A DNA stretch of 64,000 nt from Ferruginibacter sp. (GTDB taxonomy: Bacteria > Bacteroidota > Bacteroidia > Chitinophagales > Chitinophagaceae): NCBI GenBank assembly GCA_030655145.1, contig JAURWD010000291.1:1181-65180 (forward strand), read 5' to 3'. Position numbers and translations under genes: made by a program. Below are positions 31,628 through 60,506 of the stretch, piece by piece (within the stretch, counting starts at the first letter, position 1; each line of letters opens with the position of its first letter). The notes below the pieces were generated by a model. It was not told the origin of the DNA, made no database searches, and saw only the letters and a program-made list of their open reading frames with translations.

Positions 31628-31705
31628 TCATTCCGGTTTAGAAAACAATCGTCATTTTCATCACGGCGAAAACGTTACCAGGTCTTTTCTGTCATACTTT
31701 AAAAT

Positions 31706-34171: not shown

Positions 34172-34287
34172 ACAAACACTGTTAATTTTCATTTGTACTT
34201 TAATATCCTTTTATGATGGCTTTTTTGCAAAGCCACGATTGCTGTCCTTTTCTCCATAGTTTTAGCAGCAATAACGCTGCTGAAAAA

Positions 34288-36063: not shown

Positions 36064-36121
36064 CCTGCATGCTGAATTTTTCTTCCTAACCCCCTTCTCA
36101 ATTTTTTATCAATTAATAGCT

Positions 36122-37870: not shown

Positions 37871-38050
37871 CATTGATCGCCTTTGCTAATTTCAGTTCAA
37901 CGGCCGGATATTAAATGTTAGATTTTTAATTTCGACGTCCCCATTTCGATTTTTTGTTCATGTGAATTTTAAAGCACATTTGCCAAGAAATTCGGACCAG
38001 CCCCTATATTTCATAACTAAGAACCATGCCTTGTTAATTTTATATTCTTC

Positions 38051-40908: not shown

Positions 40909-41628
40909 TTAATCGCCTTCCCACAGCCAGCGGCGGGGCTTTCGCCGGGTCCCCGGTTTTAATTTGAATTTTAGAATGCTGTTTTTCTGGATGTATGCAA
41001 CAGCCTCATCTACGGAATCTGTGAAGAGAAACAGGTTCGTGTCAGTGGCGGATATGGTACCCGCAGCCTTCATCAGGTCGATGTGTTCCACCAGTTGCCG
41101 GTGAAACTCGGTGTCAAAAATTACGATCGGGAACTCCTGTATCATCTTTGTCTGGATCAGCGTAAGGGCTTCGAAATATTCATCCAGCGTTCCAAAACCA
41201 CCTGGCATCACTACGAAAGCGTATGAATATTTGATCAGCAATGTTTTTCGAACGAAGAAATATTTTATGTTCACCCATTTATCGAGGTAGGGGTTGTGAG
41301 CCTGTTCAAACGGTAATACGATATTGCAGCCGACGCTTCTTCCACCCACATCTTTAGCACCTTTGTTAGCGGCCTCCATAATGCCCGGGCCGCCACCCGT
41401 CATGATCGTGAATCCGAGGCCGGCGATCTTGGCTGCAAGCTCTTCGGTTTTTTCGTAGTAAGGATGGCCGTCTTTAAAGCGGGCGGAACCAAAGATGGTC
41501 ACACAAGGACCCACGAAATGCAGCTTGCGGAAACCTTTAATAAATTCAAGCAACACATTTACGGTGAATGTAAACTCCGTCCACCGGTTTTGCGGACCTT
41601 CTAAAAACTTGATCTCTGATTTCGTCAT
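40909..41628 (-). CDS. LOG-family (TIGR00730) protein, long type
   Basis: The Rossmann-like core carries the PGGxGTxxE motif (VVMPGGFGTLDEYFEAL) and GGGPGIMEA. Confidence 0.88.
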   Translation of the reverse strand: MTKSEIKFLEGPQNRWTEFTFTVNVLLEFIKGFRKLHFVGPCVTIFGSARFKDGHPYYEKTEELAAKIAGLGFTIMTGGGPGIMEAANKGAKDVGGRSVGCNIVLPFEQAHNPYLDKWVNIKYFFVRKTLLIKYSYAFVVMPGGFGTLDEYFEALTLIQTKMIQEFPIVIFDTEFHRQLVEHIDLMKAAGTISATDTNLFLFTDSVDEAVAYIQKNSILKFKLKPGTRRKPRRWLWEGD

Positions 41629-41870
41629 GGTAGCAATTTCTCAAATATACACTGTTGTGTAACCACTGGGCTGCGCTTCCCGCATAAAATCAGCACCGCC
41701 GCGCGGCAGCTCGTAAAGTGCATGTTTTTGCCGGGCTGCAATTTTCCAGATAATGGAAATTCCTTCCATTTTCAGGAATGGGCAGCAGTGTTATTTTAAT
41801 TTAACGCATTAGAAATCAGGCTTATCTGATTGTGGCATTGTTATCGTTTAGTAAGGGAAAATGATTTATC

Positions 41871-42299
41871 ATGCGGGTCAGAAAAGATTTTAAAATATTT
41901 GTTGTTGATGGTGACATGTTCTCTCTCAACCTCTACGAACAACACCTGCTCAACCTGGGTTACACGGACGTTTCAACCTTTCACCAGGCTTCTGACTGCC
42001 TCACTGCGCTTACGGATTCTCCCGACATTGTGTTCCTCGATCACAACATTGACGCTGCTGATGGCGTGTCATTTTTACGCAAGATCAAAAGGTTCAACCC
42101 CAACATTTACGTCATCTTTATTGCGGGTCTTGATGAAGTTGAAGCCGTGGTTAGTTCATTAAAGCATGGCGCCTTCGATTTTATCGTCCGCGGCGACAAT
42201 GATGTCAAAACGCTTGATAATGTCATTGGACGGGTTCAGCGCGTTCAGCTCCTCTTAAAAAAAAATAGCACCGGGGTCTTCCAACCCCGGGAAAAGTGA
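41871..42299 (+). CDS. Stand-alone receiver-domain protein
   Basis: It contains a REC fold only (IFVVDGD..., IVFLDHNI). By eye the conserved T/S and K positions look substituted (IFIAG, DFIVRG). Confidence 0.85.
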   Translation: MRVRKDFKIFVVDGDMFSLNLYEQHLLNLGYTDVSTFHQASDCLTALTDSPDIVFLDHNIDAADGVSFLRKIKRFNPNIYVIFIAGLDEVEAVVSSLKHGAFDFIVRGDNDVKTLDNVIGRVQRVQLLLKKNSTGVFQPREK

Positions 42300-42454
42300 T
42301 CTTCCGCCAGGATGATCCGTCATAGTCCAGGTAGTGTTGCCTCCCCGGCAATTCTAGAAAGAAATCCAGAATATGGAACAATCTTTTTAGTGGAATATGC
42401 GTTAGGTAGTTCCGTATGCTGGAATAGCTCAACACCGGCAGCACCCCGATATCT

Positions 42455-43804
42455 ATGGACTCCTATAAAATTTTCATCGTCGAAGATGACCCTTGGTATG
42501 GCGAAATTCTTGAATACCATCTCTCTTTAAACCCCGACTATATTATTACCCGTTTCTCTACGGGAAAGGAATGCCTGGCCAATATGCATAGACAGCCAGA
42601 CCTGATCACCATCGATTTTTCGTTGCCCGATTATACCGGTGACAAACTCTTGCAAAAGATCCGGGAAGTAAACGATGACATCCCCGTGATCGTTATCAGC
42701 GGCCAGGAAGAAATTGCCGTCGCGGTAAAAATGTTGAAAATGGGCGTGCGGGATTATCTCATCAAAGATGAGAATACGAAAGACATTTTGTGGAACGCCG
42801 TGATCAAAGTGCGGGAAACAGGGAATCTTAAAAAGGAAGTCGCCTCCCTGCGGGAAGAACTCTCTCAAAAATTTTCGTTTGATAAAAGCATCAAGGGCCA
42901 AAGTCCGGCATTGAACAATATTTTCCGCCTCATGGAGAAGGCGACCAAAACCAACATTAATGTATCCATCACCGGCGAAACTGGTACGGGTAAAGAAGTA
43001 GTGGCAAAAGGCATCCACTACAACAGCGACCGCAAACGCAAACCTTTTGTGGCCGTCAACATGGCCGCGATTCCCAAAGAACTCATCGAAAGCGAATTAT
43101 TCGGCCACGAGAAAGGAGCCTTTACGGGTGCTGTTGCCCGTAAGGAAGGAAAATTTGAAGAAGCCAATGGCGGAACCATTTTTCTTGATGAGATCGCGGA
43201 AATGGATCTCAGCATGCAAAGCAAGATCCTACGCGTGCTGCAGGAACGTGAGGTTGTGCGGGTAGGGGGAAATGAAAAAGTGAAACTGGATGTTCGCGTG
43301 ATCATCGCTACGCATAAAAATATTAGTGACGAAGTAAAGAAGGGCAATTTCCGGGAAGATCTTTATTACCGCATCATCGGGTTGCCGATCGAATTGCCAC
43401 CCTTACGGGAACGTGGAAACGACGTATTGATCCTGGCTAAACATTTTGCCGATGAGTTTGCGAAGGACAACAAGTTTGGCGTGATCCTTTTGTCGCAGGA
43501 AGCAAAAGAAAAGCTCCTGCGCTATAATTACCCGGGCAATGTCCGCGAGTTAAAAGCGATCATAGAGCTGGCCGTGGTAATGTGTGATGGAAAAGAAATT
43601 TTCGCCGATGATATTTCTTACAATTCAAGCCGTGGTGACGAAGCGTTTACGTCAGAGGAAAAAACATTACGTCAATATACCTGCGACATCATTCGCTATT
43701 ACCTGAAGAAATACGACGAGGATGTCCTGGCCGTTGCCAACAAACTGGACATTGGCAAATCCACGATTTACAAAATGATTCAAACAAAGGAAATTGCCTG
43801 TTAA
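42455..43804 (+). CDS. Sigma-54-dependent response regulator (NtrC family: REC-AAA+-HTH)
   Basis: The REC domain is present (IFIVEDD, ITIDFSLPD, DYLIKD). The AAA+ domain shows Walker A GETGTGKE, the GAFTGA loop and Walker B TIFLDEI. A C-terminal Fis-type HTH follows. Confidence 0.93.
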   Translation: MDSYKIFIVEDDPWYGEILEYHLSLNPDYIITRFSTGKECLANMHRQPDLITIDFSLPDYTGDKLLQKIREVNDDIPVIVISGQEEIAVAVKMLKMGVRDYLIKDENTKDILWNAVIKVRETGNLKKEVASLREELSQKFSFDKSIKGQSPALNNIFRLMEKATKTNINVSITGETGTGKEVVAKGIHYNSDRKRKPFVAVNMAAIPKELIESELFGHEKGAFTGAVARKEGKFEEANGGTIFLDEIAEMDLSMQSKILRVLQEREVVRVGGNEKVKLDVRVIIATHKNISDEVKKGNFREDLYYRIIGLPIELPPLRERGNDVLILAKHFADEFAKDNKFGVILLSQEAKEKLLRYNYPGNVRELKAIIELAVVMCDGKEIFADDISYNSSRGDEAFTSEEKTLRQYTCDIIRYYLKKYDEDVLAVANKLDIGKSTIYKMIQTKEIAC

Positions 43805-43874
43805 GCTGCATCATAGGATGCATGCTCACCAGTCTTTTAAATAGCTAAGTACGAGAGATATAATACTAAGTTGT

Positions 43875-46800
43875 ATGCGGGTTAATAAATTATTACAAAC
43901 ACAAATAAAACGGTACCTGCCTGCAGATCTGCAAAAACAGGAAGCCGTCATTAATTTCATTAATGAGGTCAGTAATACTTACGGCCTCTACCAGGAAGAG
44001 CTAAAGCCGGCTGCGGAAGCGCATGCGCATAAAATGGATAATGCGGAAGTACCTGCCGAGTTCGTACTACCGCCTAGGAATAGCCGCTTTACCAATTCAG
44101 ATCCGGCACATATTGCGTTGATCGAAACTATTAACCAGCGCGCCATTGTACAGGCAGTAGATGAAAGCGAACACATAGCTGAAAGAAAGAAGGCAGAGGC
44201 CGCTTTGAAGAATTCTGAGCAGTTACTCTCCACGGCCGTAAACACGCTGACGCACCTCATTACAAACCTCAATAACGGCATCTTGCTTGAAGACGAGCAT
44301 GGACAGGTGATTCTTGCCAATCAACTATTCTGCGACAACCTCGGCCTTGAGGCCGCGCCGGATGAAATTATCAAACATACCGGGCAGAATTGGGTTGAGC
44401 AAACAAAGCACCTGCTGAAAGATCCTCCAGGCTATATTGATCGCATTGCCACTCTTCTATCAAAAAAGGAACCCGTCACCGGGGAGGAACTTTACCTCGC
44501 AGACGGCAGGATCTTAACACGTGATTTTATTCCCCTGTTCATTGACAAAGAATACAAGGGACATCTTTGGAAATTTGAGGATGTTACCCGCGAAAAAGAA
44601 AACCAGCAGGCGTTACAGCGTCTATCCCTGGTAGCGAGTGCGAATGAAAATGGTGTGGCGTTTAGCGACGACACCGGTATGATCTTGTGGGCCAACGAAG
44701 GATTCTCCAAACTAACAGGCTATTCTTTCGAAGAAATGATCGGCCAAAACGCAGTACATCTTGGAATTGGCCCACTCTCTGACCGGGAGACGATTGCCCG
44801 GATGGCCGACCTCTTCCTTGCGGGAAAAAATTTCTCCCTGGAAGTGATCCATTACCGCAAAGACGGCACCTGGTTCTGGGCAAGAATAACGGGACAATCT
44901 ATACGCTACTGGCGCGAGAACGTTTCGGAGTTTTTTGCCATCATGGAAGACATTACGCAGGAAAAGGAGCAGCAGGAACAACTGCGGGTATTATCGCTGA
45001 TCGCGGAAGAAAACCTGAACGCGGTCATCATTATGGATGCTGACGGCGGCGTAAACTGGGTAAACAAAAGTTTTGTCCGCAATACAGGTTTCAGCCTCGA
45101 AGAAATGAAGGGCAAACAGCCAGGCGAATTACTCTACGGACCAAAAACAGACCCTGAAACCATCAAGTATGTGCGGAGCGCTATTGCCAATGGAAATTCC
45201 TACAATTGTGAAATGCTCACTTATACGAAGGCTGGAAAGCAAGCGTGGTTGCGTATCCAGGGCCAGGCCCTGAAAAATGAGAAGGGTGAACTTACCGGCT
45301 TCTTTGCCCTCGAAGAAGACATCACCAACGAAATAGAAAACAAGTCCAGGATCGAAGAATATGAATCAAGGTTCCGGAAGGCCTTTGAACAAATAGGCGA
45401 CAATGTTTGGGAACACGATTTCAAAAAGAACGTCACTTATTTTTCCAATACCAAGAGTCATTTGCTTGGTTACGAGGTAGAAGATTTTAAAAATAATCCC
45501 GACCTCTGGTTGGATAAAACACATAAAGACGATAAGCAGATCTGGGAAGAGAATTATTCCCGGTACCTAACCGGCGATTTAGATCATCACATTCTCGAGT
45601 ACCGCGTGTTGCATCGCGATGGCTCGGTGCGGTGGGTAATGGATAGGGGCGTAGTGATCGAACGTGACGCTGACGGACTTCCATCTAAAGTGATCGGTAC
45701 ACACACTGATATCACCGAACGCAAACAGGCAGAAGAATTACTGCAGACGAAAGAAGAAAAATATCGCAGCATCATCGCCAATATGAACCTTGGTTTAATG
45801 GAGGTAGATACAGAAGAGAACATCCTGTTTAGTAACCAGAGTTTTTGTGATATGAGTGGTTACGATTATGAAGAACTGATCGGCAAAAGAGCTTCGCATA
45901 TTTTTAGCAAAGGCGAGAATATCGAACTCATGGAAAGTAAGAACGAGGCTCGCAAAAAAAGTGGGTCAGATGCTTACGAGATTGCCGTAAAAGATAAACG
46001 TGGCCAGTTGCGCTGGTGGTTGATGAGTGGTGCAACCCGCTATAATGAATCAGGCGACCTGGTAGGTTCTATTGGGATTTACCTGGATATCACTGAACAG
46101 AAACAATTGGAGATCGATCTCATTGAAGCACGTGAACAAGCCGAGGAATCCACCCGCAGTAAGGAAGTGTTCCTGGCAAATATGAGTCACGAGATCCGTA
46201 CGCCAATGAACGCCATCCTTGGTATGGGACAACAGCTTGCAAAAACGAAGCTCGACAGCAAACAGTTGTTCTACCTGGATACGATCAACTCAGCCTCTGA
46301 GAACCTGTTGGTGATCATCAACGATATACTTGATCTCTCGAAGATCGAAGCAGGAAAATTAAATCTCGAAAGCATCGGCTTCGAACCGAAGGCGGTGATA
46401 AGCCGGGCAATGCAGGTGTTGGTGCATAAGGCGGAAGAAAAAGGGCTTACGATCACCAATTCAAAATTTGACACCAGCCTTTCAGCGGTGCTGATGGGCG
46501 ACCCTTACCGGTTGAACCAGGTATTGCTCAACCTTATTAGCAACGCAATCAAATTTACAGAGAAGGGTGGCGTAGATCTCTCCTGTACGGTGCTGAACGA
46601 AACCTCGCTAACGCAAACAATTTTTGTAGAGGTACAGGATTCCGGCATCGGCATGGATGAACATTTTGTAAAAAACCTCTTTGAGAAATTTTCGCAGGAA
46701 GACCTTTCGGTTACGCGGCAGTATGGTGGTACCGGCCTCGGGATGAGCATCTGTAAAGACCTCATTGAATTGATGGGCGGTGAGATCATCGTGAAAAGCA

Positions 46801-47666
46801 CCAAGGGTGTGGGCACGTCGATTTCTTTCATCGTCGAGTTTGCCAAGGGCAGCCTCGCCGATCTTCCTTCAAAGCAAAATATTTTCATAAACAACGACAT
46901 GCTTGCCAACAAGCGCATCCTCGTTGTGGATGATAATAATATGAACCGGCTGGTGGCTAAAACCATCCTCAACAATTACGGGGCCGTTACTTCAGAAGCC
47001 GTGAACGGTAAAGAGGCGATTGAGCTGTTGATGGAAAAAGAAATTGACCTCGTGCTAATGGACATCCAAATGCCGGTAATGGATGGTATGGAAGCAACGA
47101 AGATCATTCGGCGCGATATCAGTACTACCTTGCCGATGATCGCACTTACTGCTAATGCGATTAAGGGAGATAATGATAAATGCATTGCGGTAGGTATGAA
47201 CGCTTATTTATCGAAGCCATTTAAAGAAGAAGACTTGTTGAAAACCGTAGCTTTTTGTTTGGGTGAAGGCAAGACGAATTTTGTGTTGTCTGTAAAAAAG
47301 GAAGCGGAGCAGATCAGCCAGTTGTACGACCTCGCGGCCATCAGGGCCATTAGTCGGGGTAATGAAGAATTTGTGTTGAAAATGGTGAACATGTTCATAG
47401 AACAGGCGCCGGCGCAGGCTGCTGAAATGGAATTGCATTTTCACCACAGCGATTATAAATCAATGGGAGCGGTAGCACATAAGATCCGCCCGAGCATTGA
47501 TAACATGGGAATTGAGTCTTTGCGGGAGCCGATCCGGGAGATTGAAAAAATTGGTAAGTCGGGTGGAGACATAAATCGTTTACCTGAATTGCTGGATGAA
47601 GTGTCTGCCGGTTTGCGTGAGGTGATCGATGCATTGCAACAGGAAACAGTTGCGATGCTCTCCTAA
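43875..47666 (+). CDS. Hybrid sensor histidine kinase (multiple PAS/PAC, HisKA, HATPase_c, REC, Hpt)
   Basis: The 1263-aa product has at least five PAS/PAC repeats. The H-box is SHEIRTPMNAI and the G-box region GTGLGMSIC. The REC domain shows ILVVDDNNMNR and LMDIQMPVMDG, and the C-terminal Hpt shows AHKIRPS. Confidence 0.93.
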   Translation: MRVNKLLQTQIKRYLPADLQKQEAVINFINEVSNTYGLYQEELKPAAEAHAHKMDNAEVPAEFVLPPRNSRFTNSDPAHIALIETINQRAIVQAVDESEHIAERKKAEAALKNSEQLLSTAVNTLTHLITNLNNGILLEDEHGQVILANQLFCDNLGLEAAPDEIIKHTGQNWVEQTKHLLKDPPGYIDRIATLLSKKEPVTGEELYLADGRILTRDFIPLFIDKEYKGHLWKFEDVTREKENQQALQRLSLVASANENGVAFSDDTGMILWANEGFSKLTGYSFEEMIGQNAVHLGIGPLSDRETIARMADLFLAGKNFSLEVIHYRKDGTWFWARITGQSIRYWRENVSEFFAIMEDITQEKEQQEQLRVLSLIAEENLNAVIIMDADGGVNWVNKSFVRNTGFSLEEMKGKQPGELLYGPKTDPETIKYVRSAIANGNSYNCEMLTYTKAGKQAWLRIQGQALKNEKGELTGFFALEEDITNEIENKSRIEEYESRFRKAFEQIGDNVWEHDFKKNVTYFSNTKSHLLGYEVEDFKNNPDLWLDKTHKDDKQIWEENYSRYLTGDLDHHILEYRVLHRDGSVRWVMDRGVVIERDADGLPSKVIGTHTDITERKQAEELLQTKEEKYRSIIANMNLGLMEVDTEENILFSNQSFCDMSGYDYEELIGKRASHIFSKGENIELMESKNEARKKSGSDAYEIAVKDKRGQLRWWLMSGATRYNESGDLVGSIGIYLDITEQKQLEIDLIEAREQAEESTRSKEVFLANMSHEIRTPMNAILGMGQQLAKTKLDSKQLFYLDTINSASENLLVIINDILDLSKIEAGKLNLESIGFEPKAVISRAMQVLVHKAEEKGLTITNSKFDTSLSAVLMGDPYRLNQVLLNLISNAIKFTEKGGVDLSCTVLNETSLTQTIFVEVQDSGIGMDEHFVKNLFEKFSQEDLSVTRQYGGTGLGMSICKDLIELMGGEIIVKSTKGVGTSISFIVEFAKGSLADLPSKQNIFINNDMLANKRILVVDDNNMNRLVAKTILNNYGAVTSEAVNGKEAIELLMEKEIDLVLMDIQMPVMDGMEATKIIRRDISTTLPMIALTANAIKGDNDKCIAVGMNAYLSKPFKEEDLLKTVAFCLGEGKTNFVLSVKKEAEQISQLYDLAAIRAISRGNEEFVLKMVNMFIEQAPAQAAEMELHFHHSDYKSMGAVAHKIRPSIDNMGIESLREPIREIEKIGKSGGDINRLPELLDEVSAGLREVIDALQQETVAMLS

Positions 47667-47687
47667 AAAATAAGTGCTTAAGAAATT

Positions 47688-47725
47688 ATGCAAATACTCC
47701 CAGGTATTTGCATTTTTGCTTTTGG
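47688..47725 (+). terminator. Intrinsic terminator after the hybrid kinase
   Basis: The 10-bp stem ATGCAAATAC/GTATTTGCAT is followed by TTTTTGCTTTTG. Confidence 0.85.
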
Positions 47726-47818
47726 GACTACTCCATGCACCAACTTAGAGGAAACTTTGGCCGGCATGCAACGCTCCCGGAATTTTGGCTGTCAGCACGT
47801 CGACATAAAATATGCTAC

Positions 47819-48535
47819 ATGAGAAACATCCTTCCATTCTGCCTCCTGATATTGCTTGGTTCCTGTTCCAAAGACGCTGGCAATACTACTGGTATGAAGT
47901 TAGAGAGTGTAACAATGGACGGAAAAACATATGAGCGTTTCTCTTACGATGCTAAGGGCAGATTGGAAAATTTCGATCTTTTTGGTCACTGCACGGTTTC
48001 ACCAATGGATGAGGAGAAATATAGTTACGATGGAGACCGCCTGGTGAAAACCCTCGCAATAAGCCGAAGTATTTATTCATCCTCCACCGCCAGTTGTGAT
48101 CCGGCTGGTGGACTACGCACAGAAAAGACCTACACTTACAACAGCGCCGGGAAAATTGAAAAAATTAACCTGCCCAACAGCAGCGTTCAATTTTATTATA
48201 ACAATGCGGGTTTGGTAGAGAGACAAGTGATCGACAATAACCCGGCATACACCTATCGTTACGAATACGATGCAAGGGGCAACCTGGTAACCTACACCGA
48301 TAACCAGGGCGGCGTTACCACCTACGAATATGACAATAAGAAAAATCCCTACTACCTGGTAAAACTGCATCCTTCGATCATCACCGCTTTTAATGCCAGT
48401 CCCAACAACGTAGTACGTGGCATGGGTAGTGGCGTTGTTTTCTTTACCCGCCAGTTTACCTACAATTCGCAGGATCTCCCTGCTACGGTGGTGGAATCAA
48501 ATATCGCTTCGGTCTATACCTATAATTATAAGTAA
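47819..48535 (+). CDS. Small lipoprotein built of YD (RHS-type) repeats
   Basis: The lipobox is LLILLGSCSK. About seven YD-repeat units follow (FSYDAKGRL, YSYDGDRL, YTYNSAGKI, YEYDARGNL, YEYDNKKNP, FTYNSQDL, YTYNYK). The start is the ATG at 47819. Confidence 0.8.
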   Translation: MRNILPFCLLILLGSCSKDAGNTTGMKLESVTMDGKTYERFSYDAKGRLENFDLFGHCTVSPMDEEKYSYDGDRLVKTLAISRSIYSSSTASCDPAGGLRTEKTYTYNSAGKIEKINLPNSSVQFYYNNAGLVERQVIDNNPAYTYRYEYDARGNLVTYTDNQGGVTTYEYDNKKNPYYLVKLHPSIITAFNASPNNVVRGMGSGVVFFTRQFTYNSQDLPATVVESNIASVYTYNYK

Positions 48536-48606
48536 GCGGCCAGGTCGCTCGTTTTGCTCCAACTTAGTTCATGCTGCCTGCATTATATTCGCTGTCAGTT
48601 AGCAGT

Positions 48607-49224
48607 ATGATCTCCATTCACCATTTTATTCCATCTTTTTACCAGCAAATAAACCTGGATCCCCACCTTGAACCCTGGATAATTACAAGAGACATGGTTC
48701 AGCTCATTGAACAATTGCTACTCGCGGTTGGTGAGGATTACCGGGTGGAGGGTGGCGTGGCAATACACAGGTCTGCCGTGGTTGAACCGGGTGCCGTCAT
48801 AAAGGCTCCAGCTATCATCGGCGCCTCCTGCTTTATTGGGGCACATGCTTACATTCGGGGTGGAGTGTTTCTAAGTCACTCCGTGAAAATTGGCACAGGG
48901 TGCGAGATCAAATCGAGCATTGTATGCTCAGGCAGTGCGATCGCTCACTTCAATTTTATTGGCGACAGTATCATTGGAAGTAATGTAAATTTCGAAGCGG
49001 GATCCATCACGGCGAATCATTATAATGAACGGACCGACAAAAGCATCAGCGTAGTGAATAACGGCAACCTGGTTGCAACCGGTTGTACCAAGTTCGGCGC
49101 CTTGGTGGGAGATGGCTCCCGTGTCGGCGCAAATGCTGTCCTTTCACCAGGCACGCTGCTACCAATTGGCAGCATCGTTAAGCGACTTGAATTGATCGAT
49201 CAACAGGCACCGTTTTCCGCTTGA
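48607..49224 (+). CDS. Left-handed beta-helix (hexapeptide-repeat) transferase-family protein
   Basis: Repeated [LIV]-G-x4 hexapeptides are visible (IGASCFIGAHAYIRGGVFL, IGTGCEI, IGDSIIGSNV, VGDGSRVGANAVL). I chose the ATG at 48607. Confidence 0.75.
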   Translation: MISIHHFIPSFYQQINLDPHLEPWIITRDMVQLIEQLLLAVGEDYRVEGGVAIHRSAVVEPGAVIKAPAIIGASCFIGAHAYIRGGVFLSHSVKIGTGCEIKSSIVCSGSAIAHFNFIGDSIIGSNVNFEAGSITANHYNERTDKSISVVNNGNLVATGCTKFGALVGDGSRVGANAVLSPGTLLPIGSIVKRLELIDQQAPFSA

Positions 49225-49526
49225 TCATGAATGCTTATTGATTTCCCTAGAAGTCTTTCCCTAAAATTCTCCAGGTTTTTAGCCTGTTCTTTATTGCGGC
49301 CAGGCCGCGAATACTTCCCTTATTCTTGCCTCTTTGTATCTAATCCAGCAAAATGGTAGAGTTTGTATTCATATTTGAATATTAATGAATCATTTTTCAC
49401 CACTCATCCTGTGTTTTTTTGCATTCAGCATATCTGTTTTTTCGATGTCTAAATAATCAATCAATTTGTAAGCGTAAATGTTAAACGACATTAGACGTTT
49501 AGTTAAAAATTTTATAACGCACCTGT

Positions 49527-49979
49527 ATGACCATCCGGAAAGCAACTGTTAATGATGTTAAACTCCTGGGTGATCTGTTTGATAGCTACCGCGTGTTTTA
49601 TAAAAAAGAACCTGATCCCGCTGGTGCGCAACAATTTGTTTCTGAGCGCATCACGCAGAACGAATCCGTCATTTATGTTGCTGAGCACGACGATCATTTG
49701 CTTGTAGGCTTCGTGCAGCTCTATCCATTATTCTCCTCAACACGTATGAAACGATTGTGGTTGTTGAACGACCTGTATGTGCAGCCGGAATATCGCGGCC
49801 TTGGCGTATCAGTTGCACTCATTGATGCCGCGAAAGAACTTTGCCGCACTACTGAAAGTTGCGGGATGATGCTGGAGACTGCCAAAGGCAATATCATTGG
49901 CAATAAGCTCTACCAAAAAACCGGCTTTGCATTGGATGCGGATCACAATTATTTTGAATGGGAAGTTAAATCTGTATAA
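49527..49979 (+). CDS. GNAT family N-acetyltransferase
   Basis: GNAT motif A is present (LYVQPEYRGLGVSVALI), followed by the C-terminal YQKTGF motif. Confidence 0.88.
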   Translation: MTIRKATVNDVKLLGDLFDSYRVFYKKEPDPAGAQQFVSERITQNESVIYVAEHDDHLLVGFVQLYPLFSSTRMKRLWLLNDLYVQPEYRGLGVSVALIDAAKELCRTTESCGMMLETAKGNIIGNKLYQKTGFALDADHNYFEWEVKSV

Positions 49980-49996
49980 CGCTAAATTTCCAGAAC

Positions 49997-50854
49997 ATGA
50001 TGCCGAACTCTCACATTACCGTGCAGTCACTTGCTTGCACCGATGTGCAAACTTTAAGAAATTGTTTTAATGCATCTTTCAGGCAATACTATGTTCCGCT
50101 GCAGTTTACAAAAGAGCAGTTTGCTGAAAAGATCACAACAGAAGCCATCGATCTGAAACTTTCATTTGGCATTTTTGACGAAGACCTGTTAGTAGGATTT
50201 ATTCTCCATGGGATCGACAGTGTCGGTAACCAGAAGGTGGCTTATAATGCAGGTACGGGCATCTTGCCCGATTACCGCGGGCATAAGCTTTCCTATCTTT
50301 TATATGAATACAGTATTGGCCAGTTAAAAAAAGCGGGAGTTACAAAAACTATCCTGGAGGTTGTAGAACAAAATATGCCGGCGATTAAAAGTTATGTGCG
50401 CATGGGATTTTCTGTAACTCGCAAACTCAACAGTTACCAGGGCAGGCCCATTTTGAACGAAGTACCTTCCATCGAAATAGAGACATTGCCCGCACCGGAC
50501 TGGGCCCTTATCAAAAGAAGTTGTGAATGGAATCCTTCCTGGCAATACAACACCAACTGCATCAAACGGGCGCAGAGTAACTACAAATTACAGGTTGCCC
50601 GTTGCGATCAGCAGCCGGTAGCTTATTGCATCAGTAATTTGGAAACGGGGCGGATAGCCCACTTTGGCTGTTGTGATATCGAATACAAAGAAAAATACCT
50701 GTCGGCTTTGTTCAATGAAGTGAATGGGGTAAATGGGGATCACCTTACTTCCGTCATCAATGTGGACACGAATGCGCTTTACGCGAATACCTTCCTGTTG
50801 TCTATCGGGCTGCGCAGGTTATTTACTGCTTGCGAAATGGAAATGGCCTTGTAG
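49997..50854 (+). CDS. GNAT-domain protein (N-terminal GNAT plus C-terminal extension)
   Basis: GNAT motif A-like sequence is present (GILPDYRGHKLSYLL and YVRMGF). The additional ~130-aa C-terminal region is unassigned. Confidence 0.8.
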   Translation: MMPNSHITVQSLACTDVQTLRNCFNASFRQYYVPLQFTKEQFAEKITTEAIDLKLSFGIFDEDLLVGFILHGIDSVGNQKVAYNAGTGILPDYRGHKLSYLLYEYSIGQLKKAGVTKTILEVVEQNMPAIKSYVRMGFSVTRKLNSYQGRPILNEVPSIEIETLPAPDWALIKRSCEWNPSWQYNTNCIKRAQSNYKLQVARCDQQPVAYCISNLETGRIAHFGCCDIEYKEKYLSALFNEVNGVNGDHLTSVINVDTNALYANTFLLSIGLRRLFTACEMEMAL

Positions 50855-50896
50855 ATAAGTAACTGGTGAGCACAGTTTGATGCGCTTAATGTGGTC

Positions 50897-51478
50897 TTAA
50901 ACAGTTGGGGGAGTTAACCACTTTACTACCTCTGGCGCCTGGTAGTCCTGCATGCGATCGAGGAGTCGCTCTACCTGGTCATCAACCAATAACATATCCC
51001 GGTTTATTTCTTTTAGAAAACCAGCGTCCACCATTGTTTGTATCATCGTGATCAGCGGATCGTAAAAGCCCCCGACGTTGAGTAGGCCAATGGGTTTTTT
51101 ATGAAGGCCGAGTTGAGCCCAGGTCAGCATTTCAAAAAGCTCTTCAATGGTTCCGAAGCCGCCCGGCAAGGCAATTACGCCATCACACAATTCACTCATG
51201 GTTGTTTTACGCTCATGCATGGATTCAACCAACACCAGGTCTGTCAACTTTTCGTGTGCAAGTTCCTTCGCCTGCAAAAAACGCGGTAACACACCGGTTA
51301 CTTTTCCGCCGGCCTCCAGTACTGCTTCGGCGATCAAGCCCATAATTCCAACCTTTGCTCCTCCATAAACAAGCTCGATCTTGCGACTAACGAGCGCCTT
51401 TCCCAACTCGATAGTACGGTTCTTAAAAACAGCTTTATTGCCCAGGCTGGATCCGCAGAAGACGGTGATCTTTTTCAT
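50897..51478 (-). CDS. LOG-family (TIGR00730) protein, short type
   Basis: The 193-aa product has the motifs ITVFCGSS, VYGGAKVGIMG and ALPGGFGTIEELFEML. Confidence 0.9.
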   Translation of the reverse strand: MKKITVFCGSSLGNKAVFKNRTIELGKALVSRKIELVYGGAKVGIMGLIAEAVLEAGGKVTGVLPRFLQAKELAHEKLTDLVLVESMHERKTTMSELCDGVIALPGGFGTIEELFEMLTWAQLGLHKKPIGLLNVGGFYDPLITMIQTMVDAGFLKEINRDMLLVDDQVERLLDRMQDYQAPEVVKWLTPPTV

Positions 51479-52152: not shown

Positions 52153-52851
52153 ATGAAAAAATTATTTAGTCTATCCGTTGCAGCAATGTTAGGTCTCGCT
52201 GCTTTTGCTCAGGATACTATTCCAAACAGGCAGAATTCAAACCCTGCAAACAGGGACACCATTCCCGCTACGAATCGTAATTGGAATGATTCTTTGAATA
52301 AGTCACGTACCATGGACAGTAGTTATCAAAAAAGAAACTATCCGGATTCTTTGACGAACGACACATCTTCATTTGCAAGAAAGAATGAAATGAATGATTC
52401 AATGAGCACCAACACTACTACAACAGATTCATTAAGCACTGCAAATACTACGCAAACTTCAACATTGAACAAGGCTGATAGTATGACAACAAGTGCGAAA
52501 GCAACAACTACTACAACCACGACCACGCTGGATTCTACAGTAGTGTTAAGTGATCGTGTGATCATGCGTGACGACGCGATGTTTGTCATCAAAGATGGTC
52601 AGACAAATAGCCTCACTGAAACCTATAAACTGGAAAGCGGTGCTACTGTAACCAGCGACGGAACAGTAACATATCCAAGTGGTAAAACAGTGAAATTGAA
52701 GAATGGCCAGTTCATTGAGATCACCAAGTCAACCTCAAGCGATAAAGACAAGGACGAGATGACAACCGGTGATAAGAAATTAACGAAGACAGAGAAGTCG
52801 ACAAAAACAACAAAGAAGACTACGAAGAAAACTAAGCCACGTACGGACTAA
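52153..52851 (+). CDS. Secreted low-complexity Thr/Ser/Asn-rich protein with a Lys-rich tail
   Basis: The signal peptide is MKKLFSLSVAAMLGLAAFAQ. A T/S/N-rich region with a T8 run is followed by a short folded-looking segment (VIMRDDAMFVIKDGQTNSL...KLKNGQFIEI). The tail is KSTKTTKKTTKKTKPRTD. Confidence 0.7.
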   Translation: MKKLFSLSVAAMLGLAAFAQDTIPNRQNSNPANRDTIPATNRNWNDSLNKSRTMDSSYQKRNYPDSLTNDTSSFARKNEMNDSMSTNTTTTDSLSTANTTQTSTLNKADSMTTSAKATTTTTTTTLDSTVVLSDRVIMRDDAMFVIKDGQTNSLTETYKLESGATVTSDGTVTYPSGKTVKLKNGQFIEITKSTSSDKDKDEMTTGDKKLTKTEKSTKTTKKTTKKTKPRTD

Positions 52852-55565: not shown

Positions 55566-56120
55566 TTAAAGTTCCCGAAATACGCGACAGGGATTCCCCA
55601 CAGCTACCACATTGGCGGGAATATCTTTGGTTACGACGCTTCCGGCGCCGATGGTGCTGTTAGTGCCAATTGTAACCCCGGGGCAAATAATGGTGCCGCC
55701 GCCGAGCCAGACATTGTCTTCGATGGTGATGGCGGAGGCAAGCTCCGGTCCTTTTATTCGCTCTGCTGCTAAAATGGGATGATGTGCCGTATACAATTGC
55801 ACGTTGGGAGCAAGAAAAACATTGTTGCCTATGGTGATGTTTGCACAGTCAAGAAACACACAATTGAAGTTGGCAAAGAAATTTTCACCCACGCGGATAT
55901 TTGTGCCGTAGTCGCAGAAAAAAGGCGTTTGTATATCGATGTTAGTTCCCATCTGCCCCAACAATTTCTTCAATATTGCGCCGCGGATTTCACGGTCGTA
56001 GGTCGTTTGATTATATTGTTGCATCAGCTCTCTCGCCGCAACCCGCATCGCTAACAATACCGGGTCCCCGGCGTCGTATAATTCGCCGGCAAGCATTTTT
56101 TCAAGATTCGTTTTGCTCAT
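55566..56120 (-). CDS. Maltose/galactoside O-acetyltransferase family (hexapeptide)
   Basis: The Maa/LacA N-terminal helix is present (MLAGELYDAGDPVL), followed by the hexapeptide LbH core and the C-terminal GNPCRV motif. Confidence 0.9.
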   Translation of the reverse strand: MSKTNLEKMLAGELYDAGDPVLLAMRVAARELMQQYNQTTYDREIRGAILKKLLGQMGTNIDIQTPFFCDYGTNIRVGENFFANFNCVFLDCANITIGNNVFLAPNVQLYTAHHPILAAERIKGPELASAITIEDNVWLGGGTIICPGVTIGTNSTIGAGSVVTKDIPANVVAVGNPCRVFREL

Positions 56121-56183: not shown

Positions 56184-56981
56184 TCAATGTTCCGCAACTT
56201 GTTGGTCTGTACTGAAGGAACTTAAATATGTGCTCTCACGGACCAGGCCCGGGTAAAAATAGGGGGTGAGTTCGGGGCTGTCAGTGGTGCCGGCTAGCTT
56301 GTTGTCTCTGGGATTTGATATTGTTGCCACCGGGTAGTTAGGAACGTTCAGCCCGAGCGTGATGTTTCTCGTTGCCCGAAGCAGGCCGTCCTTTTTCACC
56401 GGGGTCAAAATACCACTTCCGCCTCTCGGATGCTTCCGGTCTTTTTCCGCACCGCTTAAGTAAGGATCATCTGCAAAAACGAATTCATCGATCCAATATG
56501 CGGTTTTGCCGGGTTCCTTAATGGTTGGATGAATGTGTTTTGGATTGTTGCTGTTTGGATAAGAGGCGGGCACCAAGGTCAGAATTTTGTAAGCGCCACG
56601 TTCGTCAGTCTTCAGCCATCCGCGTATGTAGCCGTGTCGCCTGCCCCAGCCCGTTTCATTGCCTTTTGTAGCATATACACCTGTTTGATCGGTGTGGTAA
56701 ACATAAAAAGTAACACCAGTAGCAGGGGTGCGTCCATCGCGTTGATAAACGGTGCCGCTGATCTCTATCTTCGGACCATTTCCTTCAAACCCCGGCAAGG
56801 TCAGGGAACTGCTGAGCATTTCAAATGGTACGGGGGTTTCATAGACTGCTTCACAGCCTTCACAATCATCGCCTACCTTGATCATGGACGCTTCTTTTGC
56901 AGGTGTTACTGCACCTTGTTGGGAGCACCCGGTTGTTGAAATGGCCGTTACCAGGATAAAAACTAAAATGATTGATTTCAT
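56184..56981 (-). CDS. Intradiol ring-cleavage dioxygenase-like lipoprotein
   Basis: The lipobox is AISTTGCSQ. The dioxygenase core is visible (TGVYATKG...RHGYIRGWLKTDERGAYKILTLVPASYP...HIH). Confidence 0.8.
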   Translation of the reverse strand: MKSIILVFILVTAISTTGCSQQGAVTPAKEASMIKVGDDCEGCEAVYETPVPFEMLSSSLTLPGFEGNGPKIEISGTVYQRDGRTPATGVTFYVYHTDQTGVYATKGNETGWGRRHGYIRGWLKTDERGAYKILTLVPASYPNSNNPKHIHPTIKEPGKTAYWIDEFVFADDPYLSGAEKDRKHPRGGSGILTPVKKDGLLRATRNITLGLNVPNYPVATISNPRDNKLAGTTDSPELTPYFYPGLVRESTYLSSFSTDQQVAEH

Positions 56982-57147: not shown

Positions 57148-58164
57148 ATGCATACGGCGGCTTTTTTTATAAAGTATAAAATTCATCACCTTGTCTTTTG
57201 GATCATGCTGTTTGGCCTATGGTACTTTCTGCGTTATGAAGATTATTCCACAACAGCACGGGCCTTCCAGGTAACGCTGATAAAAGTTGTTGACCTGGCG
57301 CTCATGATCACGATCACCAATTATATCCTGATCCCCAAGCTGCTTTACCGAAAAAGATATTTGTTGTTTACCTGCTGTTTCGTGTTGTTAGTGGTAACCA
57401 GTAGTGTGCTAAAAATGCAAGTGCTTGGACGCTTAATGAATAATCCTGCCTTGTTCGAATTTGCCGGAAATGTGAAGGCAAGAATTTACGATAATGTGAT
57501 ACCACACTTTTTCCTCGTGATCGCCGGTGCGGCCATAAAACTAATGCTCGATTATGGTGACTTGCAACAACGCATGGCCGACACTGCCCGCGAAAAAGCA
57601 GAGGCCGAGCTGAACTTCCTTAAGTCGCAGATCAACCCACATTTTTTATTTAATTCACTCAACTCGGTCTACTTCCTGATTGATAAAAGCAATCCCGGTG
57701 CCCGCAACGCCTTGCACAAATTTTCCGATATGTTGCGGTACCAGTTGTACGAAATGAATGATGACCGCATCCCCATTGAGAAAGAGATTAAATACCTGCA
57801 GGATTACGTGGATCTCCAGCGGCTGCGCACTGATGAAAATTTTGAAGTTAACATGGAGATCGACCCGACGGTAAAGGGATTTTCTATTGAGCCATTGTTG
57901 CTGATTCCTTTTGTTGAGAATGCGTTCAAACATATTTCTCACGGCCCAAAGAACTTCATCAACATTGAAATGAATCATACCGCAGATGAGTTTTTTTTCG
58001 AAGCGATCAATTCGAAAGAGGCAATGCAGAGCGATAATAATCATAAAGGCATTGGGTTGGAGAATGTACAACGAAGACTGGCACTCTTATACCCTGGAAA
58101 ACACCACCTGCAGGTTAATGATAGTGATACGACATTCAAGATTCACCTTTCAATAAAGCTCTAA
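57148..58164 (+). CDS. LytS/YehU-type sensor histidine kinase
   Basis: N-terminal TM helices are followed by the His_kinase internal region (LKSQINPHFLFNSLNSV). The ATPase N-box-like motif is FVENAFKH, followed by GIGLENV. Confidence 0.9.
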   Translation: MHTAAFFIKYKIHHLVFWIMLFGLWYFLRYEDYSTTARAFQVTLIKVVDLALMITITNYILIPKLLYRKRYLLFTCCFVLLVVTSSVLKMQVLGRLMNNPALFEFAGNVKARIYDNVIPHFFLVIAGAAIKLMLDYGDLQQRMADTAREKAEAELNFLKSQINPHFLFNSLNSVYFLIDKSNPGARNALHKFSDMLRYQLYEMNDDRIPIEKEIKYLQDYVDLQRLRTDENFEVNMEIDPTVKGFSIEPLLLIPFVENAFKHISHGPKNFINIEMNHTADEFFFEAINSKEAMQSDNNHKGIGLENVQRRLALLYPGKHHLQVNDSDTTFKIHLSIKL

Positions 58165-58173
58165 TTTCACCAC

Positions 58174-58893
58174 ATGCGCATTCGCTGTATAATCATTGAT
58201 GATGAGCCCCTTGCCCGCCGGGGCCTGAAGGAGTATATTGATGAGGTTGAATTTTTGGAATGCGTGGGCGACTTTGATGCTGCGTTGAAAGCAACAGAAC
58301 TGATAGCCAGCGGCGAGGTTCAGTTGATTTTCCTTGACATTCAAATGCCCCGGATCACCGGGCTTGACTTTATTCGCACGCTTCCGCAAGCACCCCCGGT
58401 GATATTCACTACCGCTTATCCCAATCATGCGCTCGAAGGTTTCGAGGTAAATGCCCTCGATTACCTCGTAAAGCCGATCTCATTTGAACGTTTTTTAAAG
58501 GCCGCGCTAAAAGCAAAGGAATATTATTCCCTGCGGGAAAAAGAACTGGCTGAACCCCGTGGTGGTACAGATCATTTCTATATTAAGTCTGACAACAAAC
58601 TGGTGAAGATCGCTTTCGATGACATTTTGTTTGTTGAGGGATTACAGAACTATGTTTGTATTCACACCAGTGCAAAAAAATACGTTACCTACCTTACTTT
58701 TAAAGCCGTGGATGAGTACCTGCCAGCCGCCCAATTTTTAAAAGTCCATAAATCTTACCTGGTTGCAGCAGCGCAGGTTGACAGCATCGAAGGGAACGAG
58801 GTGATCATCGGGCAGCATCATATTCCCATCAGTCGGAACCTGAAAGATGAAGTAATGGAAAAGCTGTTGGGTGGAAGGTTCTTAAAACGCTAG
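58174..58893 (+). CDS. LytTR-family response regulator
   Basis: The REC domain is present (CIIIDDEPLAR, IFLDIQMP, DYLVKP). The C-terminal LytTR DNA-binding domain follows (VHKSYLV...). Confidence 0.92.
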   Translation: MRIRCIIIDDEPLARRGLKEYIDEVEFLECVGDFDAALKATELIASGEVQLIFLDIQMPRITGLDFIRTLPQAPPVIFTTAYPNHALEGFEVNALDYLVKPISFERFLKAALKAKEYYSLREKELAEPRGGTDHFYIKSDNKLVKIAFDDILFVEGLQNYVCIHTSAKKYVTYLTFKAVDEYLPAAQFLKVHKSYLVAAAQVDSIEGNEVIIGQHHIPISRNLKDEVMEKLLGGRFLKR

Positions 58894-59072
58894 CCTGCTA
58901 TCCCAAGTCAGGTTTTGAAGGCTTTTTCTCGTTCTTGTAAAAGAATTTCCCCAGTTTCTAAATTGTCTCCGCTCGCTTCGGCCTCATCGCTTCCGGCCGG
59001 GAAAACTTTGCAAATTATTTATGCCCATTTTAGCCAAGTTGTTTTTAGATTTATGCTCCCAAAATCATCTAT

Positions 59073-59432
59073 ATGACCATTCATGAAATTGCCGATCGCC
59101 TGGTTCAGTTGTGTGCCCGCGGTCAGTTTGAAGAAGCACAAAAAGAACTTTTTGCTGACGATGCTGTCAGCCTGGAACCATATGCTACGCCGGCGTTTGA
59201 AAAAGAGACAAGAGGTTTGCCCGCGATCCAGGAGAAAATCCGGAAGTTTAACGATATGGTACAAACCATGCACAACCTGGAGGTGTCGCCACCACTCGTC
59301 GCGACAGAAAGTTTCGCCGTCACCATGCGTCTTGACGTTACAATGAAGGAGCAGGGAAAAATGGACATGACTGAGCTATGCTTATACAAGGTTAAAGACG
59401 GCAAGATCATTTCCGAAGAATTCTTTATTTAG
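59073..59432 (+). CDS. SnoaL-like / NTF2-fold protein
   Basis: The 119-aa product has the typical N-terminus (IADRLVQLCARGQFEEAQKELFADDAVSLEP) and an alpha+beta cone pattern. Confidence 0.8.
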   Translation: MTIHEIADRLVQLCARGQFEEAQKELFADDAVSLEPYATPAFEKETRGLPAIQEKIRKFNDMVQTMHNLEVSPPLVATESFAVTMRLDVTMKEQGKMDMTELCLYKVKDGKIISEEFFI

Positions 59433-59560
59433 CTCCAGGTCTTCAATTATTAGTTGTTTTCCTGTACCGTCTTCAAAAACTTCTCCACCGGTTTTTTTCG
59501 AATGATCCTGTTCCGAAAAGTTTGGTATTATTTTTTACGCGAAAGGTTAAAATATTCTAT

Positions 59561-59857
59561 ATGATCTACAAAGGAAAAGATCCAATTGAAGGAACCGACA
59601 AAACCAGCGAGCAACTGTTTGCCGATGAAAAAACGGATGAGAAGATCCGCCGCCATTTCTCCGATATCAACGACGTGATCACGGAAGCGGATATTGAAAA
59701 TGTGAAAACAAATTTTGGTGAAGCCGGTACCACCCTGGATACGAACCTGCCCTTGACCAGGCCTGCGGATAAACAGGAAAGCAATGCCGGGGAAGAAGAA
59801 AGTGAAGAACAGGAAACCACTCCCGTGGTAACTCCCTGGAACGTTATAAAACCCTAA
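59561..59857 (+). CDS. Acidic hypothetical protein (98 aa)
   Basis: This ATG-initiated ORF has protein-like composition (MIYKGKDPIEGTDK...EEESEEQETTPVVTPWNVIKP). I prefer it over its antisense shadow ORFs. No family was recognised. Confidence 0.5.
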   Translation: MIYKGKDPIEGTDKTSEQLFADEKTDEKIRRHFSDINDVITEADIENVKTNFGEAGTTLDTNLPLTRPADKQESNAGEEESEEQETTPVVTPWNVIKP

Positions 59858-59889
59858 GATAAAGTTGTGGAGGCCACACTCCTTATGGT

Positions 59890-59927
59890 ATAAATAAAAG
59901 AAGGTTTTGGTGTAAACCAAAACCTTC
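59890..59927 (-). terminator. Intrinsic terminator (expression platform of the TPP riboswitch)
   Basis: On the minus strand, the 11-bp stem GAAGGTTTTGG/CCAAAACCTTC has a 6-nt loop and is followed by TTTTATTTAT. Confidence 0.85.
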
Positions 59928-59929
59928 GT

Positions 59930-60020
59930 GTTTCAATCACTCCCTTCGACGGAATTACCCGTATCAGGTTCAAAGGGTCTGCTCTCAGGTTGAACTTTAA
60001 ACCACCCCTTATCAAGAAAC
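59930..60020 (-). promoter_or_regulatory. TPP (THI-box) riboswitch aptamer
   Basis: The minus-strand read is GGGGUGG-UUUAAAGUUCAA-CCUGAGA-GCAG-ACCC-UUUG-AACCUGAU-ACGGGUAAUUCCGU-CGAAGGGA. It matches the conserved THI-box blocks (GGGGUG, CUGAGA, ACCC, AACCUGAU, UAAU loop, CG.AGGGA). P2, P3, P4 and P5 pairings can all be drawn. Confidence 0.85.
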
Positions 60021-60092
60021 TATTTTAAAAGTTCAAAAAACATGCCATCGGACTTTTCTAAGGCATACATTTTTGCACATTTTAATTCAGGA

Positions 60093-60506
60093 TTAGATCG
60101 TGCTGGTTTCTTTCATTCCGAGTTGGGCCCGAAATCTCGCGATGGTATTTTGCGCTTCGAGTAACCTTATTTTTAGCGCGTGAATTTCTGGTTCGCCAGC
60201 AAGCAACAAGGCTTCGGTTTCTTCATTGCTCCGCTGCAAAAGAAGAATGTCTTCATCGAGTATCTTGTTCAACTCCTCAGCCTGTTTTAATTTCTTCGAA
60301 TGCTCTAACTCTGCTGCCATTTTAAATTGATGCACCTGCACATTCTCTTTTTGCAAGGTCTCTTTCATCAACCGCTCGCTTTCCAGGTAGCCTTGGGTAC
60401 TCTTCTGAAGTTTCGCCAGCTTCATGAGGGTGATCGTGCGTATGATCCAGGCAGCGCCGAATCCCACAATAAATGCGATGCCGGCGTAGATATATGTTTG
60501 TACCAA
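60093..60506 (-). CDS. Membrane-anchored coiled-coil hypothetical protein
   Basis: One N-terminal TM helix (YIYAGIAFIVGFGAAWII) is followed by ~100 aa of heptad-like charged sequence. The ORF opens with TTG, so the start is uncertain. Confidence 0.5.
   Translation of the reverse strand: MVQTYIYAGIAFIVGFGAAWIIRTITLMKLAKLQKSTQGYLESERLMKETLQKENVQVHQFKMAAELEHSKKLKQAEELNKILDEDILLLQRSNEETEALLLAGEPEIHALKIRLLEAQNTIARFRAQLGMKETSTI

Follow-up and report, generated by a model that had tools for sequence, protein, structure and literature searches.

The canonical thiamine pyrophosphate (TPP) riboswitch, Rfam family RF00059, leads a gene of thiamine biosynthesis or transport. The element described here lies on the minus strand of a 64,000-nt stretch of Ferruginibacter sp. 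DNA (assembly GCA_030655145.1, contig JAURWD010000291.1, positions 1,181 to 65,180; hereafter the window), and it has the same aptamer, the same ligand-contact blocks, apparent covariation in the same helices (P1, P2, P4 and P5) and a terminator directly after it, yet it is the leader of no gene, the next four genes being on the opposite strand. Riboswitches that act beyond the next downstream gene have been proven in only a handful of cases (SAM, that is S-adenosylmethionine, and B12), and none of these belongs to TPP, the most widespread class. In Clostridium acetobutylicum an S-box (SAM) riboswitch controls an antisense RNA to the ubiG-mccBA operon, with both the promoter and the antisense RNAs shown experimentally (PMC2566862); there the riboswitch and its terminator are downstream of, and convergent with, the affected genes, as they are here, and the ligand ends the antisense transcript early. 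In Listeria monocytogenes AspocR, the antisense RNA of pocR, is under the control of a B12 riboswitch (summary in PMC9943018); this too is a vitamin-cofactor riboswitch that looks like an orphan and points at a gene's 3' end, and its ligand shortens the antisense RNA. The placement in the window is of this type: a conserved convergent gene, here called acid98, stands just past the T-run of the terminator, and the arrangement recurs in four lineages. Our locus differs from the ubiG case in ligand (TPP rather than SAM), in phylum (Bacteroidota rather than Firmicutes) and in that the ubiG operon is itself linked to the ligand, whereas the present case is known from sequence alone; it differs from AspocR in that pocR encodes a transcription factor with a B12-needing regulon, and no comparable logic is visible for acid98. 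There is a further likeness to riboswitch and terminator pairs that give a small stable RNA of ligand-dependent abundance or length, namely SreA and SreB (SAM, Listeria), which reportedly act in trans as riboswitch RNAs and yet stand upstream of their own operons, and EutX/Rli55 (B12), which is said to carry a protein-binding site in its long form.

Antisense orientation has been surveyed computationally by Serrano-Gutierrez and Merino (2023), who list 1,185 such riboswitches (PMC9943018). An initial reading of this DNA made without database searches (the sequence-only reading) had called such elements rare, which was an overstatement, as 83 antisense-oriented TPP riboswitches are already catalogued (PMC9943018). 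The TPP cases include Bacteroidetes, for example Aequorivita and Anseongella, and the supplements of the survey hold no Chitinophagaceae or Ferruginibacter entry; many of the small hypothetical targets are blamed by the survey on annotation errors (PMC9943018). Our locus belongs to the same class of arrangement, with the difference that the facing gene is real and the riboswitch is conserved across saturated divergence, and it is a new and unusually well-conserved case of the catalogued antisense-oriented TPP riboswitches. Our literature search found no experimentally validated antisense- or trans-acting TPP riboswitch, the validated cases being those for SAM and B12. Computational lists of antisense elements cannot part function from accident, and to these the present locus adds evolutionary evidence.

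The comparisons that follow draw on metagenome contigs (L numbers) fetched through close homologues of acid98 and of cc137, the gene that precedes the riboswitch on its own strand; wherever six copies are mentioned, these are the window, L083, L085, L130, L131 and L132. The interpretation with the best support is that the element works as a TPP-sensing terminator module under selection, an OFF switch acting at transcription termination, and that it is the 5' leader of no open reading frame (ORF). The module is ~152 nt long and comprises a GGCAT-N-TTTTTTG motif, the aptamer and the terminator, with these parts in the window:

60034..60046, minus strand: the motif GGCATGTTTTTTG, 13-15 nt before P1, forming the 5' edge of the module (11 invariant positions in six copies)
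59923..60019, minus strand: TPP riboswitch aptamer (THI element), distal P3 absent (Rfam RF00059)
59962..59976, minus strand: aptamer core CCCUUUGAACCUG (P2 3' strand, J2-4, P4 5' strand), the stronger antiterminator candidate (RNAduplex)
59930..59934, minus strand: P1 3' strand (GAAAC), a candidate antiterminator (folds of transcripts cut short of the terminator 3' arm; hairpin energies)
59890..59927, minus strand: intrinsic terminator, a 12-bp stem at 59927..59900 and a T-run at 59899..59890 (terminator scan)

The identity of the aptamer is clear. In a cmscan search of the whole 64-kb window against Rfam 15, RF00059 matched 60019..59923 of the minus strand with a score of 60.0 bits, the gathering score being 54.3 (E 2.9e-9 over the full 64 kb), with model positions 1-105 complete, and it was the sole Rfam family over threshold in the window; a permissive scan of 55-64 kb gave the same result. 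The blocks GGGGUG, CUGAGA, ACCC, GAACCUGAU, the UAAU loop and CG-AGGGA are all aligned, and the only part missing is the variable distal P3. Those that contact the ligand, CUGAGA of the pyrimidine sensor, ACCUGAU...CG-AGGGA of the pyrophosphate sensor and the UAAU loop, align to the consensus with posterior probability '*', and they are invariant across the six copies with the exception of AGGGA, which is AGGAA in L131 and L132. The THI box recognized in the sequence-only reading is thus borne out both block by block and by a covariance-model score above the gathering threshold, and the element belongs to RF00059 by its score over the full model while lacking the family's usual context, the 5' leader of a thiamine gene. 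Two lesser signals were set aside: a weak snoRNA match at 59487-59593, scoring 27.6 bits where the gathering score is 101, is due to chance, and a complementarity between the leader and P3 of the window, which also appears in its minimum-free-energy fold, is not kept in the other copies.

The terminator is equally plain. The hairpin GAAGGTTTTGGT-TTAC-ACCAAAACCTTC at 59927..59900 of the minus strand, followed by TTTTATTTAT, has a predicted free energy of -16.9 kcal/mol in the window and of -13.5 to -16.9 kcal/mol across the six copies, where the stem is near-invariant, with 100% of cells paired and 9 of the 12 pairs unchanging. The pattern occurs once in the window. The sequence-only reading had placed an 11-bp terminator and U-tract here; its hairpin, T-run and coordinates stand, and the scan corrects the stem to 12 pairs. 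The terminator stem-loop (59902-59919) resembles the P3 hairpin (59987-60004), with 72% identity over 18 nt (AGGTTTTGGTGTAAACCA against AGGTTGAACTTTAAACCA), a likeness that may be due to chance or may be a trace of the origin of the platform.

The element is conserved under selection. Over its length from GGCAT to the T-run the module shows 82-98% identity between lineages, whereas four-fold degenerate sites of the neighboring cc137, SnoaL, LytTR and kinase genes are 18-45% identical between the window and the other lineages, which is to say saturated, and the spacers that flank the module are 3-77% identical and run to 27-46 nt upstream and 35-179 nt downstream. Conservation has sharp edges, at the upstream motif on one side and at the T-run on the other. 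Standard pairs make up 92.8% of cells over the 35 pairs of aptamer and terminator, as against 35-64% with slid partners, and changes on both sides are found in four pairs, three in P1, P3 and P5 (3 of 23 counted aptamer pairs) and one at the terminator base. The shuffle statistics for pairing are modest with six sequences, 10-37 of 500 shuffles reaching the observed values, and P1, P2, P4 and P5 appear to be maintained by base-pair covariation. It might be argued, as the sequence-only reading did in one of its options, that the element is a relic, the riboswitch of a thiamine gene that has been lost or moved, and that it no longer functions. The lack of a thiamine gene nearby would agree with this, as would the loss of the module in some sister lineages and a match to the P4/P5 segment in L139 (described below) that may be the remnant of a deletion. 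A decaying relic is nonetheless very unlikely, because the helices are kept by compensatory changes while neutral sites are saturated and most spacers are far less conserved; every copy, moreover, is still over the Rfam gathering score, the boundaries of the module are sharp, and in none of the relatives found does the riboswitch precede a gene on its own strand. Conservation across saturated divergence, compensatory changes and sharp boundaries together argue that selection has kept this orphan element in several related soil bacteria.

The genes around the module are as follows.

60093..60506, minus strand: cc137, a 137-aa membrane-anchored coiled-coil protein with no Pfam family (homologue alignment)
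59561..59857, plus strand: acid98, a small acidic protein of 98 aa whose gene converges on the riboswitch (orthologue conservation)
59073-59432, plus strand: SnoaL_5 (Pfam)
58174-58893, plus strand: Response_reg+LytTR (Pfam)
57148-58164, plus strand: His_kinase (Pfam)
56184-56981, minus strand: dioxygenase-like lipoprotein, the next gene on the riboswitch strand (gene survey)
55566-56120, minus strand: Mac acetyltransferase (gene survey)

The coiled-coil gene had been correctly placed upstream on the same strand in the sequence-only reading, and it ends 73 nt, rather than 72 nt, before the aptamer. On the other side the T-run ends at 59890 and the stop codon of acid98 is at 59857, with 32 nt between. 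The earlier statement that no minus-strand coding sequence follows holds, the next four genes being real, on the plus strand and of unrelated domains, and the gene survey at 22-64 kb of the window turned up no Pfam family related to thiamine, nor does a thiamine gene occur in at least 37 kb on the side of the riboswitch that was surveyed. The minus-strand ORFs of this region had been dismissed as ATG-less shadows; shadows they are, although they are not all without ATG, the frame at 59123..59410, antisense inside the SnoaL gene, being one that starts with it.

One of these frames deserves separate mention, since it could be taken for the regulated gene. An unannotated small ORF on the riboswitch strand might be what the riboswitch controls, and a 130-codon open frame with a TTG start (59528..59920) does run antisense over the whole of acid98, sharing second codon positions with it. 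A frame in this register is left open whenever TTA, CTA and TCA codons are avoided in the sense gene; the one in question starts inside the terminator, its equivalents are interrupted in L083 and L085, conservation is seen in the acid98 protein and not in the antisense translation, and the variable spacers share no ORF of at least 25 aa. We rejected it as a shadow ORF, no conserved translated minus-strand ORF was found, and of all the explanations considered here a hidden small gene is the one to which we give the least credence. The same frame could mislead gene callers, and one assembly carries a 45-aa gene call over the riboswitch itself (L001 1156-1293).

A regulated gene might also be sought farther off. 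Read-through of ~2.9 kb across four genes would make the riboswitch a very long, excludon-like leader of an mRNA for the dioxygenase-like lipoprotein and the Mac acetyltransferase, both of which are on the riboswitch strand and keep their order in L083, L085 and L130. Any such transcript would be antisense to the His_kinase, Response_reg+LytTR and SnoaL_5 genes (57148..59432, plus strand), and it would have to pass several terminator-like hairpins on the way. An untranslated antisense leader of 2.9 kb would be prone to Rho termination, and neither gene has a known thiamine link, so that we regard this arrangement as highly improbable.

The module occupies the same position, after cc137 and facing acid98, in four lineages of Chitinophagaceae metagenome contigs. 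The order of cc137, riboswitch and the opposing acid98, SnoaL, LytTR and kinase genes is kept in L083, L085, L130, L131 and L132, and partly in L133, a contig that stops inside the terminator. Identity of cc137 to the window is 91% in L083, 86% in L130, 85% in L131, 90% in L132 and 76% in L085/L086, and the five further distinct copies of the aptamer score 61.1-67.7 bits against the TPP model. Between the terminator and the acid98 stop codon, L083 carries a perfect 21-bp palindromic hairpin without a T-run (CCCGAAAAGTCATCGTGCCGG/CCGGCACGATGACTTTTCGGG, 3451-3496), with equivalents in L130 and L085, and in other lineages this spot is taken by different hairpins; such elements may stabilize the acid98 3' end or act as a barrier to read-through.

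Relatives that lack the module were also found. cc137 has ~600 homologues, mostly from Ferruginibacter-like Chitinophagaceae. Both cc137 and acid98 are kept in L135 and L139, with stop codons 10 nt and 63 nt apart respectively; L084 is without acid98 as well as without the module; and in L134 (cc137 81% identical) an insertion sequence (IS) element of the Transposase_mut family lies directly after cc137 at 1277-2077, riboswitch and acid98 being undetectable. The cc137 side of L134 ends with a different strong terminator, AAGCTTAGTGAAA...TTTCACTAAGCTT and a T-run. A nhmmer search with a module profile found nothing in L134, L135, L139 or L084, and Smith-Waterman alignment with shuffles found no module remnant in L134, L135 or L084; a degenerate aptamer that had seemed visible by eye in L134 was supported by neither method. 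In L139 the same alignment detected GAACTGAAACGGTAAATGCCG in the spacer (1737-1800), a 19/22 match to the P4/P5 segment in the correct orientation (shuffle p ~0.01), which is weakly suggestive of a remnant and is possibly a deletion scar. A cc137 profile scan yielded 43 metagenome loci (46-75% identity) with neither a TPP element nor acid98, and L140 (73% identity) likewise has no TPP element. A further 80 genome loci from 80 species, reached by way of an M14 peptidase (identity of at most 72%, with one partial match of 76%), are without a TPP element and without the cc137/acid98 neighborhood, and are uninformative on the riboswitch because the conserved block ends upstream of the peptidase. 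Trees of these short proteins interleave carriers and non-carriers, and, the phylogeny being weak, we suggest only tentatively that the module was ancestral in a small clade and was then lost repeatedly. No flanking direct or inverted repeats of the kind left by insertion of miniature inverted-repeat transposable elements were found at the module, which appears to have been passed down vertically, placed between the convergent cc137 and acid98, within a single Chitinophagaceae clade.

The terminator stands directly 3' of the aptamer and its 5' arm has alternative partners there, which supports the transcriptional OFF platform proposed in the sequence-only reading. RNAduplex pairs the arm (AAGGUUUUGGU) with aptamer segments at a predicted -7.6 to -10.5 kcal/mol in the six copies. 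Its best partner is the aptamer core listed above in L083, L130 and L085 and, in the window, AGAGCAGACCCUUUG, which overlaps that core, while in L131 and L132 it is the P3 segment AAAUUAGAACCUG and not the core. The 3' strand of P1, GAAAC, has two possible partners, the P1 5' strand GUUUC (60020..60016) and the GUUUU(GG) of the terminator 5' arm, and with the 3' arm still untranscribed the pairing of that arm with UUGAAAC is predicted at -2.6 to -5.5 kcal/mol in most copies. Because the aptamer-core and P1 segments would be locked away in the ligand-bound fold, the platform looks like an OFF switch of the usual logic, and we infer that termination depends on the ligand. The three-way constraint imposed by P1, antiterminator and terminator would leave the terminator arms unable to drift.

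What such a switch might regulate is less easily deciphered. Since the convergent position is fixed, we favor transcription antisense to acid98, and the specific role that we propose for the module, TPP-gated antisense read-through into this gene, is one whose chances we place a little below even. With TPP bound, P1, P2 and P4 would be locked, the 12-bp terminator would form, and transcription would stop ~32 nt short of the acid98 stop codon. At low TPP the terminator 5' arm (AAGGUUUUGG) would instead be paired with the aptamer core (CCCUUUGAACCU), the P1 3' strand GAAAC, or both, and with that arm sequestered RNA polymerase would read through. The resulting RNA would be antisense to acid98, and possibly to the SnoaL, LytTR and kinase genes, and the output of acid98 (and perhaps of its neighbors) could be lowered or altered by transcriptional interference or by duplex formation. 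The source of the transcription, whether a promoter of its own or read-through from cc137, and the effect upon acid98 are suggested by the model rather than observed.

A number of observations weigh against this proposal. The predicted antiterminators are much weaker than the terminator, so that termination could be near-constitutive. In L083, L130 and L085 the terminator is set apart from acid98 by 80-180 nt and by another strong hairpin, which could limit the antisense overlap. acid98 does not need the module, because L135 and L139 keep cc137 and acid98 without it, and searches of Pfam, NCBIfam and the PDB gave no link between acid98 and thiamine. A promoter search upstream of the riboswitch found no exact Bacteroidota -7/-33 promoter. 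In the survey cited above, antisense TPP riboswitches number 83 of 9,849 in representative genomes, a count that is not above chance (P=1.00; PMC9943018). Last, conservation stops sharply at the T-run, which would fit equally well with the terminated RNA as the functional product.

The last of these points leads to a different reading, in which the module is a stand-alone TPP-binding small RNA. A terminated transcript of ~135 nt, from the downstream edge of the motif to the T-run, would act in trans through base-pairing or protein binding, or would buffer or report TPP, any read-through being incidental. The confinement of conservation to a discrete module with sharp edges at the motif and the T-run is what such an RNA would predict, as is the presence or absence of the module as a unit between otherwise identical gene orders, and a near-invariant terminator far stronger than its antiterminators implies that the short form should dominate; the short terminated RNA may indeed predominate under most conditions. 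The invariance of the terminator is, however, also explained by the constraint of P1, antiterminator and terminator upon one another, and the promoter search gave no canonical site. A faint hint that retention depends on local context comes from a single case, L134, in which the acid98 side has given way to an IS transposase and a TPP element is not detectable. We therefore consider a stand-alone RNA a serious alternative, albeit an unlikely one. Antisense read-through and a trans-acting terminated RNA are both possible, and sequence by itself does not separate the two.

The origin of the transcript bears on either of these. The GGCAT-N-TTTTTTG motif is absent from the riboswitch-less L135 and L139, and the spacers farther upstream diverge; it is a candidate promoter -7 element, being a near-match to the Bacteroidota TAnnTTTG, or else a candidate RNA-level element. 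TAnnTTTG is ~3-fold enriched in the intergenic DNA of the window, and the motif is not an exact match to it. The promoter search of the 5' side of the riboswitch gave neither a sigma-70 type site nor a clear -33 element, and a terminator scan found no strong terminator between the cc137 stop codon and the aptamer, the gap in the window having only a 5-bp stem with a 15-nt loop that is not kept as a hairpin in the other copies. It follows that the module may be a 3' untranslated element of the cc137 mRNA with no promoter of its own, where TPP would decide between an end at the hairpin and run-on, and thereby set the stability of that mRNA and, secondarily, interference with acid98. The lack of a convincing terminator after cc137 and of an exact -7/-33 promoter would both accord with this, and in riboswitch-less relatives, with stops 10-63 nt apart and no terminator between them, the two genes would naturally transcribe into each other. 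The motif, on the other hand, belongs to the module and is absent without it, as expected of a promoter element, and cc137 is widespread without any riboswitch (the 43 metagenome loci, L084, L135, L139 and L140), which together lead us to regard a role confined to the cc137 mRNA as improbable. For the module in general, the transcript may come from a promoter of its own or from co-transcription with cc137.

The facing gene is itself of interest. Orthologues of acid98 conserve the N-terminal 52 aa and a C-terminal TPWN motif, and the wider family (59-143 aa; 223 cluster representatives at an E cut-off of 1e-3) has the invariant core KI(R/H)(R/K)H(L/F)SDINDVI(T/S)E-x-DI-x-NV(K/R)T, then an acidic linker that varies and, in many members, TPWN(V/L/I) at the C-terminus. 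Sequence searches of Pfam, NCBIfam and the PDB returned no match; calmodulin hits (E of 0.4 or more) were rejected as compositional, and the AlphaFold model, with a mean confidence (pLDDT) of 55, is too poor for a fold search. The DNA 5' of acid98 (~59501-59560, plus strand) is conserved relative to L083 (~3798-3850) as gatcct...aaaa(g/t)TTTGGTA(t/c)TATTTTTTAC...TAAAA(A)TATT just before the ATG; this is probably an acid98 promoter or operator and possibly a site for the LytTR regulator.

Elsewhere in the window, at 28769-40834 and 40909-51478, several glycoside hydrolase genes in a row (GH31, GH2, GH9, GH2) come before a sigma-54 activator, a multi-PAS hybrid kinase of 1263 aa and two LOG-like (Lysine_decarbox/SLOG) genes, these last at 40909-41628 and 50897-51478. 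A 639-aa ORF at 35951-37870 has no Pfam match. The plus strand at 52153-52851 encodes a secreted protein of 232 aa with an extreme content of Thr, Ser and Asn and with stretches of T, the antisense ORF being a run of V; it is a low-complexity surface protein and is possibly glycosylated.

Taken as a whole, the locus may be a TPP-sensing RNA gene that has become uncoupled from thiamine metabolism and been kept in a clade of Chitinophagaceae, where it would couple acid98, and perhaps also the LytTR two-component module beside it, to vitamin B1 status by ligand-gated antisense transcription or in trans. This broader view is put forward with doubt, as one that is more likely wrong than right; it is the evidence of selection on the orphan element that makes the locus a good candidate for experiment. 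Should either the antisense or the trans mechanism prove true, this would be the first demonstration of a TPP riboswitch with a role beyond the control of a thiamine gene in cis, and for Bacteroidota the first of a riboswitch that acts antisense or in trans, it would offer a first functional lead on the Pfam-less acid98 family, and it would tie cofactor status to a small protein and a two-component module in soil Bacteroidota.

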